Virus record (IMG/VR): IMGVR_UViG_3300016471_001002
Location: 64,001 to 128,000 of that record
Length of the DNA: 64,000 nucleotides
Origin: a virus
Taxonomy: Duplodnaviria > Caudoviricetes
Reading direction: 5' to 3' (one strand)
Both the position numbers and the translations under genes were made by a program. Positions 10,229 through 18,442 of the stretch are shown piece by piece (position 1 is the stretch's first letter; the number at the start of each line of letters is the position of its first letter). The notes under the pieces were generated by a model. That model did not search any database, was not told where the DNA came from, and saw only the letters and a program-made list of their open reading frames with translations.

Positions 10229-11308
10229 ATGCAACGAACGCTTTGTTTTGATGATGTTCTTTTAGTTCCCCAATACTCAGAGATTGAGTCTAGAAAAAAT
10301 GTTGACGTGTCTGTTTCGGGATTTGATGATCTTGATGCAGCGTTGACAAAATCGCATTCGACTCTAAAATGCCCTATCATCGGATCGCCGATGGATACGG
10401 TCATTAGTCCTGAAGTAGCTAGCGTTTTGGAAGATTTTGGTGGATTCGGGGTTTTGCATCGATATTGTACGATTCAAGATTCAGTAAAAATGTTCAAGGA
10501 AACACTTGAAAAGTGTCCAGGACATCCTTTACCAAATATCATGGTTGCAATTGGCGCAACAGGGGATTATCTTGAACGTGCAACTGCTCTATATGAAGCT
10601 GGATGTAGAGCATTTTGCATTGATGTTGCTCATGGCCATCATTCATCTGTTAAAAACGCATTAAAAGAACTACGTCTTAAACTTGGGGATGAAGTTCATT
10701 TAATGTCTGGCAATGTTGCAACGCTAGATGCGTTTAATGATCTTGCGGATTGGGGCTCTAACTCTATCAGGGTTGGTGTGGGTGGTGGAAGCATGTGTTC
10801 GACAAGAATTCGAACGGGTCATGGTATTCCAACTCTACAATCGGTGATGGATTGTGCAAAATCTGATCGTGATGTTTTTATCGTCGCAGATGGCGGAATT
10901 AGAAATTCAGGTGATGCTGTTAAAGCTTTGGCTGCAGGTGCTGATATGATTATGTTAGGATCTATTCTTGCAGGACATGATGAATGTCCCGGAGATCTTG
11001 TAGATTCTCATGGGTTGACATATAAGTCATCGCAACCTATTGGAGTTCCACTTTTTAAGAAATTTAGGGGAATGGCTTCACGAGAAGCTCAACTACAATG
11101 GAGAGGTAGAGTTTCTGTCGTTGAAGGAGAAAGTACGATGATCCCTTACAAGGGATCTGTAGCAAACACATTGACAGATTTGCTTGAAGGAATTAAATCA
11201 GGAATATCTTATTCAGGTGCCAGGACGATTAGAGAACTTAGATCAAAGGCTAAATTCATCACAGTGACATCACAAGGGGTCCGAGAAAATGGACCCCATG
11301 GTAAATGA
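10229..11308 (+). CDS. guaB: IMP dehydrogenase / GMP reductase family (no CBS domains)
   Basis: [32 protein letters not shown] (catalytic Cys), ADGGIR, FRGMAS, SYSGA. Confidence 0.85.
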
Positions 11309-12247: not shown

Positions 12248-13252
12248 ATGGCTAAAGGATTAGATGTAGGAACATCGTTCATCGTTCTTGCAGAAGAAGG
12301 AACGAAAGGAAAAGTTACATATAAAGATTTTCGAGATGCGTTTTATGTTATAAAACCAACGACCCCCATCGCTACAAAGATGATTGAAAAAGGATTAGCT
12401 GGAAAAGTTTTCGTTAAAGACGCCGATGGTTCATTCATCATACTTGGCAAAGACGCGATTGAAAAAGCAGTGGAAAGAAACGATTCAGCGAAGCGTCCCA
12501 TGTATAAAGGTGTAGTTTCTTCTAAAGAAAAAGACGCCCGCAGAATTTTAACATATATTCTCAAAGAAGTTGCTGGCTCACCACCTGAACCCGGAGAGAA
12601 GCTTGTTTTCTGCGTCCCGGCGCAACCTGTTGATCAAGAAGATGAAGACTTCGATGTAGGATATCATGAGGATGTCATTGTGAAACTCCTTTCAGAAGTA
12701 GGGTATTCAGCTAGAGCAATTAACGAAGCCGAAGCACTTTGTTACTCAGAACTAGAAAAGGATGATTATACCGGAGTCACACTATCATGGGGAGCTGGCA
12801 TGGTCAACGTTTGCGTTATGCTAAATGGCGAACCTATCGTCACATTCTCAACCACGAAGTCTGGTGATTGGGTTGATCGTATGGCAGCCGTTGCTACAGG
12901 CGAGACAGATTCAGTCGTTCAAGCAGAGAAGGAACAAGGCGATTTCACTGTCGGTCAACCAAACGATAATCAAGTTCTTGCTGCTGTTTCAACCTACTAT
13001 GATCGTCTCATCGATTATACGACTAAACAACTTGCTTCAGCCATGGACGGACACAAATCTCTTCCAAAGTTCAAGGATGCATTACCTGTAGTTGTTGCCG
13101 GTGGAACATCAAAGGCCAAGGGATTTGTCGATCTATTTGCAAAGAAGCTCGAAGAGAACGGTTTCCCTCTTCCAGTCAAGGAAGTTCGTCACGCAGCAGA
13201 TCCTCTTCATGCAGTTGCCCGTGGGTGTTTAATCGCAGCACAAATTATGTGA
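12248..13252 (+). CDS. Actin-like ATPase (MreB/MamK/ParM-type fold)
   Basis: GLDVGTS (phosphate 1), INEAEA (connect 1), SWGAGMVNV (phosphate 2), VVAGGTS (adenosine), DPLHAVARG (connect 2). Confidence 0.85.
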   Translation: MAKGLDVGTSFIVLAEEGTKGKVTYKDFRDAFYVIKPTTPIATKMIEKGLAGKVFVKDADGSFIILGKDAIEKAVERNDSAKRPMYKGVVSSKEKDARRILTYILKEVAGSPPEPGEKLVFCVPAQPVDQEDEDFDVGYHEDVIVKLLSEVGYSARAINEAEALCYSELEKDDYTGVTLSWGAGMVNVCVMLNGEPIVTFSTTKSGDWVDRMAAVATGETDSVVQAEKEQGDFTVGQPNDNQVLAAVSTYYDRLIDYTTKQLASAMDGHKSLPKFKDALPVVVAGGTSKAKGFVDLFAKKLEENGFPLPVKEVRHAADPLHAVARGCLIAAQIM

Positions 13253-13273
13253 CTTTCGAAGTTGATTAATCCT

Positions 13274-13300
13274 AAAAGCTCTCGGAAACGGGAGCTTTTT
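13274..13300 (+). terminator. Intrinsic terminator
   Basis: AAAAGCTCTCG-GAAA-CGGGAGCTTTTT. Confidence 0.88.
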
Positions 13301-13318
13301 CATTTTAGAATCTTTGCT

Positions 13319-13349
13319 GTGCAAAACTTACAACCTCGCATGGTATAAT
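13319..13349 (+). promoter_or_regulatory. Putative early/middle promoter of dnaE
   Basis: GTGCAA-N19-TATAAT with extended -10 TGG; same motif recurs at 43856, 58700, 61438. Confidence 0.65.
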
Positions 13350-13355
13350 CATGGT

Positions 13356-14327
13356 ATGTCAAACAGCAAGAAGGAAATGCGCGATCGGAGGCCAAATCGT
13401 TTTGTCGGCCTCCACGCGCATTCGTAATTTCCGCCCGGAATTTATTTTCCGGGCGGAATAATATCAGGATTCTCAACATTTGATGGGCTTGATTATCCAC
13501 AAGAGCACATCGATTACGTCTTAGAAAATGGCATGGATGCGTGGGCATTAACCGACCATGGCCACATGAACGGATTCTGCCATGCATATCTTCACGCTGA
13601 AAAAATGAGGAAATCAGGCAAGAACTTCAAGTTCATTCCTGGATGCGAGATGTATGTCCATCCCGATCTGAAACAGTGGCAGATCGATATCGAAAAATCG
13701 AAAGAGAAACCGGTCAAGGATGAATCTATCATCACGCCTATCACGGCTGTTGTTGATGGAAACGATGAGACGACGGATCTTGGAACTGATGAAGCTTCTC
13801 TGACGATCGAAAATGAAGATGAGACGAAGTCAGGTAAGTATAACGACCCAGTTAAACGTCGGCATCATCTGGTTGTCCTACCAAAAACTTCAGTTGGTCT
13901 GCAGAGGTTATTCCATCTGGTTTCTCGGGGTTATTTGGAGGGCTTCTACAGGTTCCCCCGAATTGATTACAGGATGCTGAAGGAGGCTGCGCAAGGTGGT
14001 CACTTGATGGTGTCAACCGCATGTTTAACTGGAGATGTAGAACTCATAACGAATAGAGGCCTAGAAAACCTGTTGTCTGTCGTTGAAAGATTCAATATGG
14101 GTGATGATGTCTTGGTTCTTTCATATGACGAAAAAACAGGGTCTAAGGAATTCAAGAAAGTTTCTTGGGCAGCAATGACTAGAAAAAACGCGAAATTATT
14201 GAGAATTAAACTGAAGGATGGAAAGAGTGTTACGCTGACACCAGACCACAAAGTCTTTACTAATCTGGGATGGATGGAAGCTCAAGATTTAAAAAAGCAT
14301 GAAGGAATTCAAATTCTTACTTTGTAA
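13356..14327 (+). CDS. dnaE: DNA polymerase III alpha, N-terminal fragment (PHP domain) fused to split intein N-half; interrupted by an in-frame TAA at 13425
   Basis: MSNSKKEMRDRRPNRFVGLHAHS*(13 further codons)GFSTFDG...ALTDHG..GCE..RHHL..STA-CLTGD; same frame as ORF-track 13533. Confidence 0.85.
13425..13466 (+). other. 42-nt stop-plus-hairpin insert in dnaE (candidate ribosomal bypass element)
   Basis: TCG|TAA T TTCCGCCCGGAA TTTATT TTCCGGGCGGAA TAATA TCA|GGA; perfect 12-bp stem; removal restores H-A-H-S-G-F-S-T-F-D-G. Confidence 0.7.
14022..14324 (+). mobile_element. Split intein, N-fragment (101 aa)
   Basis: Block A CLTGDVELITNRG, block B VTLTPDHKVFT, then stop; no endonuclease domain inside. 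Confidence 0.9.
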
Positions 14328-14336
14328 GCTTTAGGT

Positions 14337-14368
14337 CCTCCAAGACAAACATAATTATGTCTTGGAGG
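14337..14368 (+). promoter_or_regulatory. RBS-sequestering hairpin with late-promoter-like motif in its loop
   Basis: CCTCCAAGACA-AACATAATTA-TGTCTTGGAGG; the 3' arm holds SD GGAGG of ATG 14379. Confidence 0.8.
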
Positions 14369-14378
14369 TTCACAAACA

Positions 14379-15359
14379 ATGGGAGCAGAAAAGTATAATA
14401 AATTTTTAGGAGAGGAAAAAAGCAGAATATTTGAAAGTTTTCTAGTTACGTGGAAAACAAAAGATCAAATACTCGAGATGTATAGAGAAGGTTATTCTCC
14501 TTCTCAACTTGCCAAGTTGTTTGAATATGAAGTTGGATTTGACGAGCTCCGTGAGCAACAATCTACTTTTCACGGTAAAAAACCAAGAAGCTTTTTAGTT
14601 TTTCCGACTATTACAACAAACATCTTTGCAAAAAGACTAACATCTATAATACCCTACTCAAAAGAGTTTCATGATATTCATCTTTCAAAACCGCAATGGT
14701 GGAAAATAAAATTTTCACACCTTGATAAAAGTGAAGATGAAGTTAAAGAACTTGCAAAAGTTCAGCTTCTAGATTGGCAAAAAAGTACATGCGAAAAAAG
14801 AAAAAAGTCAGGTGCTTATAATCCAATTTACACAATTGATTATTGGAAAGAGAAATCCGATGATCCTGAAAAATCAATTGAAAAATATAAACGAGAAATT
14901 AGTCCAAGGTGCATTGAGTTTTGGATAAAAAAAGGATATGACATAAATGAGGCAAAAAAAAGAATAGGCGATACATGTCGACCTGGTGCCATTAAGGTTT
15001 TGAAAAATCTCAATGGAAAAAATGCTTCGAAATTAGAAAAAAGAATTTATGAGCTCATAAATGATGATTCTGTTTGTCAACAGCTTTTTTTGGGCAAATA
15101 TGCATATGACATTTACAAAAAAGAAACAAAGAAGATCGTAGAAATCAATGGAACGTATTGGCACGCAGACCAAAGGGTTTATCAAGATTTGCAGCAAAAT
15201 CTCATTCATGGAACAGTTCAGCAGATTAGAGAAAAAGATGAACAAAAAATATCTTATGCAAAATCTAAGGGATGGGATGTTCTGGTCATTTGGGAACTTG
15301 ACTATTGCAAATCTCCAAATGAAGTGATAGAATCTATTAGAAGGTTTTTCAAAACATGA
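14379..15359 (+). mobile_element. Free-standing homing endonuclease, Vsr/DUF559-like C-terminal domain
   Basis: KLEKRIYE..YAYDIY..IVEINGTYWHAD..KDEQKISYAKSKGWDVLVIWE; (E/D)(F/Y)W.(K/E)K repeats; lies between the two intein halves. Confidence 0.8.
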
Positions 15360-18300
15360 GTAATTTTGTAGAAGTTGTTGAGGTCGAAGAACTTGATTAC
15401 GTCGAAGACGTCTATGATATTACCGTAGAAGATAATCATAACTTCTTTGCAAATGGGATGTTGGTTCACAATTGTCTCGGTGGCACGTTGAGTTATGACG
15501 TCTTTTCCAAATTGCAAAAGATCAAGTTTGATGATCTGAAGCATCAGTTGCTCGATGATGCTGCGCTATTTGAATCTGTCTTGCTCGAGATGGGCAACAC
15601 TTATGATAAGCTTGCAGATGCGGTAGGTCGCGAAAACGTTGCTTTGGAGTTGCAGTTCAATAAACTTCCAGCGCAACATCTTGTCAACCGCGCGCTGATC
15701 GAATTTGCGAAACGAAACTCTTTGTCGAATCGGCTAGTCGTCACCTGCGATTCGCATTATTCTCGTCCTGATAACTGGAAAGAACGTGAGATCTACAAGA
15801 AGCTCGGATGGCTCAACTATCAGAACTTCGATCCTAATATGCTTCCAAAGTCTAAGGATGATCTCAAATGTGAACTGTACCCGAAGAACGCAACCCAGGT
15901 CTGGGATTCATATCTGTCCACAACCGAAGGCATGGATTTCTATGATGATGACCTAATCCGCGAGGCCATCGAACGTACTCATGACATCGTTCATAATGAG
16001 TTAGGTGACATTCATCCCAATAAGGAGATGAAGCTTCCTTCATATGTGATTCCTGAAGGGTCGACGGAAGACAAGGCCCTCGTCGAAGCTTGTAAGAAAG
16101 GATTAATCTGGCGAGGTCTGGATGACAAGCCTGGGTATATCGAGCGAATCAAGTATGAGCTGAAGATTATTCGAGACAAGAAGTTTTCTCGATACTTCCT
16201 CACGATGAAGGCAATCATGGACCTTGCACGTGAACACATGCTGATTGGTCCGGGGCGCGGTTCGGCCGCAGGTTCTCTAGTTGCTTATGTCCTCGGCGTC
16301 ACGAACCTTGACCCAATTGAGTATGACCTTTCATTTGAACGGTTCCTTAATCCCTCTCGCCAGGGCGCTCCTGATATCGATTCTGATATTGGAGACCGCG
16401 ATAAGCTGATCGAACTTCTCCGTGATAATTTTGGTAATAACAATGTTATTCCAATCTCTAACTACAATACCTTTAAGCTTAAGAGCCTTGTCAAAGACAT
16501 TTCAAGATTTTATAACATTCCATTCGAAGAAGTCAATGCTGCTCTTGCTCCGGTAGAAGACGATGTCAAGAAAGAAGTCTTCAAACCTGGTGTCGACAAG
16601 AACCTTTTTGTGTTGACTTATGAAGACGCGATGAAGTATTCTAAGTCGATGCAAGACTTCGTTGCATCGCATCCTGAAGTCGCCGAACCGATTGAGATTC
16701 TTTTCAAGCAGAATCGTTCTCTTGGCCGCCATGCCGGCGGTGTTATCGTGTCTGAAGACATTGCTGAACGTATGCCTCTTATTCTCGCAAAGGGTGAACC
16801 TCAGACTCCATGGGTTGAAGGCATGCATTATAAGCATCTCGAAGAGTTCGGATGGATTAAGTTCGATCTACTCGGCCTCGAAACTTTGCGCATCATCGAA
16901 CGATGCATCTATCTAATTTTGCAAAGGCGTGAAGGAATTGCAAATCCAACGTTCCAAGACATTAAGGCTTGGTTTGATAAACACATGGATCCGAAGAATA
17001 TTGATCTAAATGATCAAAAAGTCTATGAATATGTTTATCACGAAGGAAGGTTTGCCGGCGTGTTCCAATGTACGCAACCTGGCGCACAGCGTCTATTTAC
17101 GAAAGCAAAGCCTCGTAGTATCATTGACATTGCTACTCTAACTTCAATCTATCGTCCAGGTCCTCTTGCGGCAAACGTCGACAAGATCTACATTGGCGCT
17201 AAGAACGAACCTGAAAAGATCGATTACCAACATCCTCTTATCAAGAAGGTGCTAGAACCGACTTACGGATGCATCATTTTTCAGGAGCAAACCATGAAAC
17301 TTTGCTCTGTCGTCGCAGGATTCCCTGAGGCAGAGACGGATACAATTCGCAGAAACATTATGAAACGTTCTGCTTCAAAGAAAGACGCCGCGGCAGCAGA
17401 CGCCAAGAAGGCCAAGGAAGACTTCGTTTCTGGTGCGATGAAGAATGGTGTTCCTGAAAGAGTGGCAGATGAACTCTATGAAAAGATTCTCTTCTTCTCC
17501 GGATACGGTTTTAACGCATCTCACGCAGTGTCTTATGCAATTGATTCTTACTACTGTGCATGGCTCCTCACTTACTTTGAGGAGGAATGGCTTTGTGCTT
17601 ATCTTGAATCGATGTCAGGAAATGATGAGAAGCGTGCTAAGGCTTTCTCAGAGGTCAAAGCGCTTGGATACAAGATCGTAAACATCGACGTCAACTATGC
17701 AACGAAGAGCTGGACTATCCTCGAAGGAAAAAGATTCATGCCAAGCTTCCTTTCATGTAAGGGCGTGGGGGAAGCTGCAGTTGATGAGATCATGGAAAAT
17801 CGTCCATACAAATCAATAGAGGACATGTTATGGAATGAGGACGGTACGTGGAAACATTCTAAATTCAACAAACGAGCTCTTGAAGCCCTGATCGGAATCA
17901 AGGCATTTGACTCATTGGATTGTGTTGGCGTAGATAGAACGTTTAGCAGCTATAGACAAATGTATCAAATCCTGATTGATCATAATAATGAAATCAAGAA
18001 GCATACCAAAAAGAACCCTCTCGTTGGAATGGAAGCATTTCGTAATCTCCTGATCGAATCTAAGGATGAACCTGAGTGGACTCGCGGTGAGATTGTCGAT
18101 AATAGCATTAAATACCTTGGTTCATTTAATGCAGCCATGTTAATGCCTGATGATATCCTAAAGAAGTTGGAATCCAGAGGTGTCAAATCAGTTGATGATC
18201 TTTCAGGTAGTGACATTTACTGGTTTATTGTTTCTGACGCAAAACCCAAAAAGACAAAAACAGGGAAAAACTATTTGCTTTTAACGATTACGGGTATTGG

Positions 18301-18442
18301 AGGTCAAAATCATAGATTGTTCTGTTGGGGGTGGGATGGTATTAGAGAAATTCCCAAGTACAGCGTTTGTCTTTCTGAAATCACAGTCGATGGATACGGT
18401 AATAAAACTTTTATGAGTAAGGTTAAAGTATTGGATTCATGA
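15356..18442 (+). CDS. dnaE: Split intein C-fragment (39 aa, 15356-15472) fused to DNA polymerase III alpha C-terminal fragment
   Basis: VYDITVEDNHNFFANGMLVHN-C (blocks F/G); DSHY, GPGRGSAAGSLVAY, PDIDSD, HAGG, KFDLLGL, RPGP, YGFNASHAVSY, C-terminal OB fold. Confidence 0.95.
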   Translation: MSNFVEVVEVEELDYVEDVYDITVEDNHNFFANGMLVHNCLGGTLSYDVFSKLQKIKFDDLKHQLLDDAALFESVLLEMGNTYDKLADAVGRENVALELQFNKLPAQHLVNRALIEFAKRNSLSNRLVVTCDSHYSRPDNWKEREIYKKLGWLNYQNFDPNMLPKSKDDLKCELYPKNATQVWDSYLSTTEGMDFYDDDLIREAIERTHDIVHNELGDIHPNKEMKLPSYVIPEGSTEDKALVEACKKGLIWRGLDDKPGYIERIKYELKIIRDKKFSRYFLTMKAIMDLAREHMLIGPGRGSAAGSLVAYVLGVTNLDPIEYDLSFERFLNPSRQGAPDIDSDIGDRDKLIELLRDNFGNNNVIPISNYNTFKLKSLVKDISRFYNIPFEEVNAALAPVEDDVKKEVFKPGVDKNLFVLTYEDAMKYSKSMQDFVASHPEVAEPIEILFKQNRSLGRHAGGVIVSEDIAERMPLILAKGEPQTPWVEGMHYKHLEEFGWIKFDLLGLETLRIIERCIYLILQRREGIANPTFQDIKAWFDKHMDPKNIDLNDQKVYEYVYHEGRFAGVFQCTQPGAQRLFTKAKPRSIIDIATLTSIYRPGPLAANVDKIYIGAKNEPEKIDYQHPLIKKVLEPTYGCIIFQEQTMKLCSVVAGFPEAETDTIRRNIMKRSASKKDAAAADAKKAKEDFVSGAMKNGVPERVADELYEKILFFSGYGFNASHAVSYAIDSYYCAWLLTYFEEEWLCAYLESMSGNDEKRAKAFSEVKALGYKIVNIDVNYATKSWTILEGKRFMPSFLSCKGVGEAAVDEIMENRPYKSIEDMLWNEDGTWKHSKFNKRALEALIGIKAFDSLDCVGVDRTFSSYRQMYQILIDHNNEIKKHTKKNPLVGMEAFRNLLIESKDEPEWTRGEIVDNSIKYLGSFNAAMLMPDDILKKLESRGVKSVDDLSGSDIYWFIVSDAKPKKTKTGKNYLLLTITGIGGQNHRLFCWGWDGIREIPKYSVCLSEITVDGYGNKTFMSKVKVLDS

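Follow-up and report, generated by a model that had tools for sequence, protein, structure and literature searches.

Natural translational bypassing has been described for T4 gene 60 and its homologues, all of them myovirus topoisomerase genes (bioRxiv 10.1101/2022.08.31.505936; reviews PMC7026636 and PMC5009743). That preprint lists, for this family, a stop codon at take-off, codons that match, RNA structures and a gap rich in AU at its 3' end. Bypassing is also described for the terminase gene of the Streptomyces phage phiHau3, where the junction peptide was found by mass spectrometry in E. coli (PMC10732093). Here we describe an insert of 42 nucleotides (nt) with a strong hairpin in the first PHP motif of dnaE, the replicative polymerase gene, in a 64,000-nt stretch of viral DNA (the window, positions 64001-128000 of the 211,097-bp contig IMGVR_UViG_3300016471_001002). 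The gap is most likely skipped by ribosomes, and from sequence comparison it would be a second natural counterpart of the T4 gene 60 bypass. We put the probability of a programmed translational bypass (long hop) at 13422-13466 at roughly 0.75. Full-text literature searches found no paper on a hairpin gap or short hops in dnaE, and the initial annotation of the window likewise knew of no described DnaE case.

The dnaE gene opens at ATG 13356 on the plus strand. Its first 23 codons (open reading frame (ORF) 1, 13356-13424; MSNSKKEMRDRRPNRFVGLHAHS) encode the N-terminal PHP strand with the HxH metal ligands, and this would be the nascent peptide at take-off. The last codon is TCG (13422-13424), the Ser of HAHS and a rare Ser codon in this genome (8%). 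A TAA stop (13425-13427) follows directly, and one T separates it from the gap hairpin (13429-13458), a perfect 12-bp stem in which the arms TTCCGCCCGGAA (13429-13440) and TTCCGGGCGGAA (13447-13458) enclose the loop TTTATT. The A/U-rich spacer TAATA (13459-13463) leads to TCA (13464-13466), the probable landing codon when aligned to uninterrupted HAHSGFSTFDG. Decoding would restart at GGA 13467, and the codons after TCA (GGA TTC TCA ACA TTT GAT GGG) read GFSTFDG. The coding gap is 39 nt (13425-13463) and the displacement from take-off to landing is 42 nt, in frame, interrupting HxHS|GFSTFDG. All these elements lie where the initial annotation had placed them. Removing 42 nt restores the exact motif seen uninterrupted in the closest homologue (protein P0005, locus L062).

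A 5' stem-loop (13374-13423) precedes the gap, and its 3' arm runs into the take-off codon. The outer helix pairs approximately 13374-13383 with 13415-13423, and the inner helix pairs GGAGGCC (13387-13393) with GGCCTCC (13407-13413); the inner helix is the second stem noticed before, which is real and part of this larger structure. Folding gives -26.4 kcal/mol (z -3.9) for the 5' stem-loop and -24.1 kcal/mol (z -5.8, 0 of 200 shuffles) for the gap hairpin. No perfect hairpin in the 211-kb genome is longer or richer in GC than the gap hairpin, which occurs there in a single copy. By motif reading, the PHP ligand motifs TDHG, GCE, RHH and DSH are intact, as had been claimed, and so is the polymerase motif PDID.

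The layout is similar to that of T4 gene 60 in several ways. In both, the take-off codon stands directly before a stop and has a matching landing codon, and the non-coding gap is tens of nt long (50 in gene 60, 42 here). A stem-loop precedes take-off in both, each gap opens with a hairpin and is AU-rich towards its 3' end, and in both the hop would be needed to make one chain of an essential replication protein. However, the site lies in the PHP motif of dnaE instead of a topoisomerase subunit, with no sequence similarity. Here a transfer RNA (tRNA) for Ser would move from UCG to the synonymous UCA, whereas gene 60 uses Gly and moves from GGA to an identical GGA. The hairpin here starts 4 nt after the take-off codon, while that of gene 60 contains the take-off codon; the nascent peptide here has 23 residues, and there is no clear Shine-Dalgarno-like element before landing. 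The dnaE site is not homologous to the gene 60/mobA family, in that gene and sequence differ and published members of that family lie in topoisomerase genes only.

Other described systems share single features with the site. The byps of Magnusiomyces mitochondria (the work of Lang in 2014 and Nosek in 2015) are reportedly inserts of 27-55 nt, present in many copies and mobile in behaviour. They resemble the dnaE gap in being short inserts that have a hairpin, matched codons for take-off and landing and, behind the first of these, a stop or an unused codon, but they are mitochondrial and eukaryotic and occupy dozens of sites in many genes, whereas here one motif of one gene is affected, in phages. 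Short tRNA hops over stops are said to have been seen in E. coli reporters by Weiss, Dunn, Atkins and Gesteland in 1987 and by O'Connor, Gallant and others. In these hops the peptidyl-tRNA leaves a codon beside a stop and re-pairs a few nt further on at a cognate or near-cognate codon, as we propose for the dnaE alleles with gaps of 5-16 nt. The reporter hops are low-level and occur in artificial constructs, whereas the dnaE sites are natural, conserved and equipped with a stem-loop. The phiHau3 terminase is likewise a phage gene in pieces joined by bypass, with predicted RNA structures that bring landing near take-off; there, however, the trigger is a rare UUA codon tied to the supply of bldA tRNA, and gene, host group and gap anatomy all differ (PMC10732093).

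We compared the DNA behind homologous proteins at 57 IMG/VR loci and 80 metagenome loci; the resulting allele counts and across-allele comparisons are not phylogenetically independent. Both half-motifs are present at 141 loci, of which 93 are uninterrupted, 5 have one extra residue and 43 (the window counted) have a stop-containing gap. The close homologues in the protein search are of two kinds: proteins of 300-309 residues that start M...RFVGLHAHSGFSTFDG, and proteins of 264 residues that start at MDAW, as a gene caller treats the interrupted gene. The closest, the near-identical relative P0005/L062, joins the N-terminal peptide of the window straight to GFSTFDG and reads HAHSGFSTFDG, uninterrupted, an outcome that the initial annotation had named as support. 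Three of the public proteins (P0009, P0010 and P0012) are truncated predictions, and their DNA shows the gap that the gene caller could not cross. Similar-looking public predictions, with MDAW or MNGF starts or out-of-frame N-termini, are P0013, P0014, P0016, P0018, P0026-P0029, P0054, P0057 and P0058, for which the gap is the presumed cause.

A hairpin at HAHS^GFS, the window type, is found at 15 other loci, and there are 9 distinct cores with the window's own counted. L072 carries a 42-nt allele identical to that of the window. The 42-nt allele of L001 has a flipped loop, which gives a second in-frame stop. In L058, L063 and L064 the insert is 39 nt long; U-A replaces C-G there as a compensatory change, and the loop has 4 nt. 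L059, L066, L075, L076, L079 and L080 have 41 nt with TAG and the loop TTTTTTAG, which changes the frame; L073 has 42 nt, with one T more in the loop TTTTTTAG, and L082 has 42 nt with a U-A to A-U change. Other hairpins at the same site were a second outcome named as support in the initial annotation. In the relatives the coding gap is 36, 38 or 39 nt, the stop is TAA or TAG and the spacer also occurs as CAATA, CAACA or TGATG. The take-off codon is TCG, or TCA once (L076), and the landing codon is TCA in all hairpin alleles.

Over the 9 distinct cores the 11-pair stem is paired in 99 of 99 cells. Three pairs are changed on both sides, and slid registers pair in 29-60%. The loop varies freely and the length varies as well. 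Selection acts on the gap stem but not on loop or length. The gap is non-coding: length, frame and stops vary (39, 41 or 42 nt; TAA or TAG; the second stop of L001) while the flanks stay conserved. The loop TTTATT (13441-13446) reads AATAAA, its exact reverse complement, in L001 (96% identical in protein) and in sequencing run X4, and from the sequences the whole palindrome is flipped in place between these two and the window.

At about 27 further loci the break comes 12 nt further 3', behind the Ser of GFS (GFS^T), and at one, L098, it falls on the same site as in the window, with no hairpin present. The frame displacement of these short gaps is 5, 7, 8, 9, 10, 11, 12 or 16 nt, so that all three frames occur. 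A stop lies directly 3' of the Ser codon in all 30 distinct gap alleles, and some short-gap alleles have two consecutive stops (TAA TAA, TAG TGA). The landing codons form two groups. In the first, landing is on a Ser codon that the same tRNA can read (TCC>TCT, TCC>TCC, TCG>TCA, TCG>TCT). In the second, the landing codon agrees with the take-off codon at two positions and covaries with it: TCG>ACG (two different gaps), TCC>ACC (three different gaps), TCT>ACC, and TCG>TTG (two lineages; a U-G pair can form at the middle position). Splicing systems do not remove 5 nt, and two stops in a row are not open to readthrough; a peptidyl-tRNA hop would account for all short-gap cases. The hairpin-less allele of L054 reads TCG TAATAATA TCA, which is nearly the TAAT plus TAATA of the window, and the length in L098 is 9 nt. 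The hairpin allele looks like a short hop site with an inserted palindrome. Gap lengths that grade from 5 to 42 nt, with all frames represented, are a further difference from gene 60.

The 5' stem-loop is shared by the gap alleles at both sites. In an alignment-free stem search (62 nt upstream against the 14 nt ending at the Ser codon), a stem of 7-14 bp is present in every distinct gap allele (30 of 30), with the 3' arm 0-4 nt from the end of the take-off codon and a loop of 13-43 nt. For 76 uninterrupted alleles the median of the best stem is 4-5.5 bp, and the highest value is 7.5. The arms covary, as in AGAATCC/GGATTCT, GAGAAGCCGG/CCGGCTTCTC and GAGAACCCTGTGT/ACACAGGGTTCTC, and with GCGCCCGGTG/CACCGGGCGC the protein motif itself is switched from F to R. 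An explicit pair count on 14 short-gap alleles in register shows two-sided changes at 7 of 13 pairs, with the six core pairs formed in every sequence; not one of 500 shuffles attained these values, and pairing in slid registers falls far short of them. With 18 short-gap alleles as input, RNAalifold returned no structure, since the 5' arm of four of these sequences lies in another register. In the uninterrupted L062 the outer helix has two mismatches and the fold is unremarkable (z -1.05). The N-terminal peptide through HxH has at least 22 residues in gap alleles, against a median of 16, although L062 has the same peptide as the window. An internal GGAG(G) is present in 30 of 30 gap alleles and in 12 of 68 uninterrupted ones.

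An extended -10 box, TGGTATAAT (13341-13349, plus strand, read from the sequence), lies exactly 6 nt before ATG 13356, a spacing kept in L058, L059 and L062, and no Shine-Dalgarno element lies between the two. The promoter annotated earlier at 13319-13349 holds to the extent of this box; a sigma-70 consensus scan called no promoter 5' of ATG 13356. Because the box is 6 nt from the ATG and no Shine-Dalgarno element is present, a leaderless or nearly leaderless messenger RNA (mRNA) is predicted for dnaE-N, and given such an mRNA, GGAGG in codons 11-12 would be an internal Shine-Dalgarno-like element that is part of the 5' stem-loop.

We propose that translation starts at ATG 13356, probably on the leaderless mRNA, and yields the 23-residue peptide up to HAHS. 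When peptidyl-tRNA-Ser sits on UCG (13422), a rare codon, and UAA occupies the A site, a fraction of ribosomes would escape termination. The tRNA-Ser would unpair, the ribosome would slide 42 nt, and the tRNA would re-pair at UCA 13464, so that decoding restarts at GGA and yields one polypeptide with an intact HAHSGFSTFDG metal site. The 5' stem-loop may re-form behind the sliding ribosome, pushing it forward and hiding the take-off codon, an idea that is taken from the gene 60 literature (bioRxiv 10.1101/2024.12.09.627546). The 12-bp gap hairpin may loop out 30 nt and leave TAAT and TAATA, about 9 unpaired nt, between the Ser codons. This effective distance would be the same as in the hairpin-less relatives. 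Such a hop could also gate an essential polymerase, as the initial annotation suggested, or the gap could have another regulatory or protective function.

Among the alternatives, we consider RNA excision improbable. Here the 42 nt, or a stretch equivalent to them that has TC at either edge, would be cut out and the mRNA ends ligated, followed by ordinary translation; hairpin-guided unconventional splicing of HAC1/XBP1 serves as the model. A conserved hairpin with compensatory changes also fits an RNA recognition element, variable insert length and frame are equally compatible with it, and the available reads are contigs, which drop rare forms. However, the sole RNA-library contig over the site (13372-13524, 153 nt, from a metatranscriptome library) is identical to the window with the insert included, and no joint skipping the 42 nt is reported in the run contigs across the site, from which rare forms may drop out. 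Rfam gives no match with E<0.4 at the site. A self-splicing intron of group I or II was rejected, the 42 nt being far below a catalytic core of hundreds of nt. Excision, proposed earlier as an alternative, might act on the 42 nt, but it cannot explain the 5-nt gaps of the same family: gaps of 5-16 nt have no gap hairpin, carry the same Ser-stop and 5' stem-loop and are not removed by any known splicing. Nor does cutting and joining predict the covariation of landing and take-off codons.

Termination followed by re-initiation is quite improbable. In this case the 23-residue HxH peptide would be freed at TAA, translation would restart, for example at AUA 13458 or 13461, and the pieces would assemble non-covalently. 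Although 70S ribosomes can scan and restart after a stop, no ATG, GTG or TTG stands in frame from the gap up to ATG 13533, and the window and most relatives have none of these between the stop and the conserved residues. Of the alleles seen, L082 (23-72) alone would permit a restart right at landing; it has an in-frame TTG ATG directly before the landing codon (..CGG TTG ATG TCA GGA..) and GGGCGG just upstream. The short-gap alleles lack any such start, and in several of them the coding sequence continues in a different frame within 2-8 nt. The free peptide, 23 residues long, would also have to supply the first strand of the PHP barrel and two metal ligands, and the match of landing and take-off codons would be left unexplained.

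Readthrough of TAA, also listed initially, would place 14 residues (x-FPPGIYFPGGIIS) inside the motif, and is very improbable. The window's insert is in frame and without a second stop, which formally agrees with readthrough. But relatives with 81-96% identity in the PHP domain carry inserts of 41 nt, which change the frame, or, in L001, a second in-frame stop, and this rules out readthrough as the mechanism of the family. TAA ends 36 of 100 long ORFs of this genome; it is an ordinary stop and therefore not reassigned, and the 14 residues would fall between metal-binding residues.

There is similarly little chance that the palindrome is an inactivating insertion that left a pseudogene, or a truncated PHP domain starting at ATG 13533, even though gene callers start such alleles at MDAW... 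(the 264-residue P0009, P0010 and P0012). Seven hairpin alleles each have at least 280 open codons 3' of the gap. Between hairpin alleles of the same downstream architecture the ratio of nonsynonymous to synonymous divergence (dN/dS) is 0.03-0.06 over 280 codons, with dS of 0.3-2.3. Since synonymous sites are saturated, the gap has been carried through long divergence under strong purifying selection, and the interrupted gene is not a pseudogene. The 23 codons 5' of the gap and the 23 codons from the gap to ATG 13533 are conserved, all motif residues included. The idea of a mobile hairpin element fails as well. Repeats were not found in the genome, and a repeated palindromic element (REP/MITE-like) was rejected on this single copy. 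An exact-stem search of IMG/VR returned a relative's dnaE and three unrelated intergenic GC-rich hairpins in high-GC phages, nothing else. An assembly or sequencing artefact has a negligible probability: palindromes can confuse assemblers, but contigs from DNA runs of two other studies span 13250-13650 with the insert (one with a reverse-complemented loop), further assemblies (L072, L001/L071, L058, L059 and others) carry the insert or variants, and the RNA-library contig carries it too.

The gap hairpin is not an intrinsic terminator, as stated in the initial annotation. The terminator scan called it on neither strand, it is GC-rich without a U-tract (tail TAATATCAGG), and the sole terminator-like site nearby is 13274-13299. 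The sequence GGCGG in the 3' arm was rated weak as a Shine-Dalgarno element for landing, with a central mismatch to the anti-Shine-Dalgarno sequence.

Several observations weigh against a bypass. No good Shine-Dalgarno-like element lies 5' of the landing codon. The nascent peptide of 23 residues is shorter than the exit tunnel and does not resemble the gene 60 signal. The only tRNA-Ser encoded by the phage, tRNA-Ser(GGA), reads neither UCG nor UCA; it does read the TCC and TCT take-off codons of many short-gap relatives. The uninterrupted L062 shares the N-terminal peptide and the inner stem, so these two are not bypass-specific. The RNA support is a single 153-nt metatranscriptome contig, possibly from DNA carry-over, and contigs are blind to a rare spliced form. 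The comparisons across alleles lack phylogenetic independence, and all support for the hop is comparative. Within that scope the initially proposed step from TCG to TCA is upheld, and the family of Ser-stop gaps with a covarying 5' stem-loop takes it further. The genome-wide search for hop sites suggested at the outset, carried out as two crude scans (ORF pairs, and stop, stem, landing codon and long open frame), recovered dnaE itself and elsewhere only noise.

In the tree of PHP domains, every major clade mixes gap alleles with uninterrupted ones. The window's clade of 27 rows has 12 hairpin, 6 short-gap and 9 uninterrupted alleles. N-terminal peptide types travel together with gap types. A hairpin and an uninterrupted allele with 90-100% identity downstream are wholly different over about 250-350 nt around promoter, N-terminus and gap. 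Patchy, cassette-like spread among close relatives is also a property of gene 60. An ORF of about 300 residues (for example L004:1982-2908, L013:2060-2932 and L052:2000-2926) lies directly upstream of dnaE at 16 of the 27 loci with a short gap, at 6 of the 98 that are uninterrupted and at none of the 15 with a hairpin. It has a C-terminal endonuclease domain (PHROG 945/9019, weakly Endo I-like) and is a candidate homing endonuclease that, by analogy, may form a cassette with the hop site like that of mobA/gene 60, where a free-standing endonuclease gene also adjoins the gap gene. In the mobA/gene 60 cassette, worked on by Bonocora in 2011, the gap is reportedly thought to protect the carrier's DNA from its own endonuclease. 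The window's allele, unlike mobA/gene 60, has no adjacent endonuclease gene. There is no homologue of the short-gap relatives' upstream endonuclease in the window's genome and no similarity between that endonuclease and the DUF559 endonuclease of the window, so that the mobA-like link holds for the window's allele only by analogy.

We lean, by somewhat better than an even guess, towards a wider interpretation in which phage dnaE holds a second, independently evolved natural bypass system. It would consist of mobile 5' cassettes with a Ser-stop take-off site locked in a covarying 5' stem-loop and hops of 5-42 nt into any frame. At its far end would stand the window's allele, in which a looped-out 30-nt palindrome would reduce the 39-nt gap to an effective hop of about 9 nt. 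The gaps perhaps arose, as proposed for gene 60, as insertions or deletions that shield the motif DNA from a homing endonuclease, which is still attached in most short-gap alleles and would have been lost ('hit and run') in the hairpin clade.

The same dnaE gene (13356-18442) is also fractured, 0.9 kb 3' of the gap. ORF2 (13467-14327, plus strand, by ORF and motif reading) encodes the rest of the PHP domain (GFSTFDG..., TDHG, GCE, RHH) and ends in the N-half of a split intein (...STA|CLTGD...). A free-standing Vsr-like/DUF559 endonuclease gene of 326 residues (14379-15359, plus strand) lies between the intein halves and overlaps the start of the next gene by ATGA. That gene (15356-18442, plus strand, by motif reading) encodes the C-half of the intein (...LVHN|CLGG) and the rest of DnaE (DSH, PDID, fingers, HhH). 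A split intein with a free-standing Vsr-like endonuclease in a fractured dnaE is a known arrangement (Dassa et al. 2009, PMC2677866), and this gene is fractured exactly so; there, however, protein splicing answers a DNA insertion, and the mechanism is unrelated to the gap. The hairpin gap is found in alleles with and without the fracture. L001 and some other hairpin-gap relatives appear to lack it, their similarity ending after about 190 residues by tblastn coverage.

The source contig has 40% G+C, and from its gene content, including 13 tRNA genes at 157782-205044 (outside the window; tRNA-Ser(GGA) among them), the phage is a jumbo phage of freshwater metagenomes. In the phage GenBank collection a DNA search (distant mode) returned nothing and a protein search only relatives below 31% identity, so there is no close cultured relative in that collection. 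The gene upstream of dnaE (12248-13252) encodes a 334-residue actin-fold protein with a full-length Pfam Volactin match (E 7e-66), and homologues are also upstream of dnaE in the related phages L001, L002, L003, L004 and L019. The clean intrinsic terminator at 13274-13299 follows and belongs to this upstream gene. Positions 10229-11308 encode a protein of the IMPDH/GMP-reductase family (Pfam IMPDH, E 4e-87) that seems intact here; in metagenomic phages of this kind, fracture by split inteins is reported for several gene families, IMPDH among them (PMC2677866).

Long-gap bypassing rested for decades essentially on T4 gene 60 among bacterial viruses, and phiHau3 and yeast mitochondria complete the list. 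Gene callers truncate or split the dnaE polymerases with gaps, as in the 264-residue 'MDAW...' public proteins, and phage replication modules are mis-annotated as a result. If the bypass reading of dnaE is true, it adds a second bypass family in an unrelated essential gene. Its dozens of alleles, from 5-nt hops to a 42-nt hairpin gap on one stem-loop design, would be a natural mutational series for take-off, slide and landing, and would show how hop sites evolve beside homing endonucleases.

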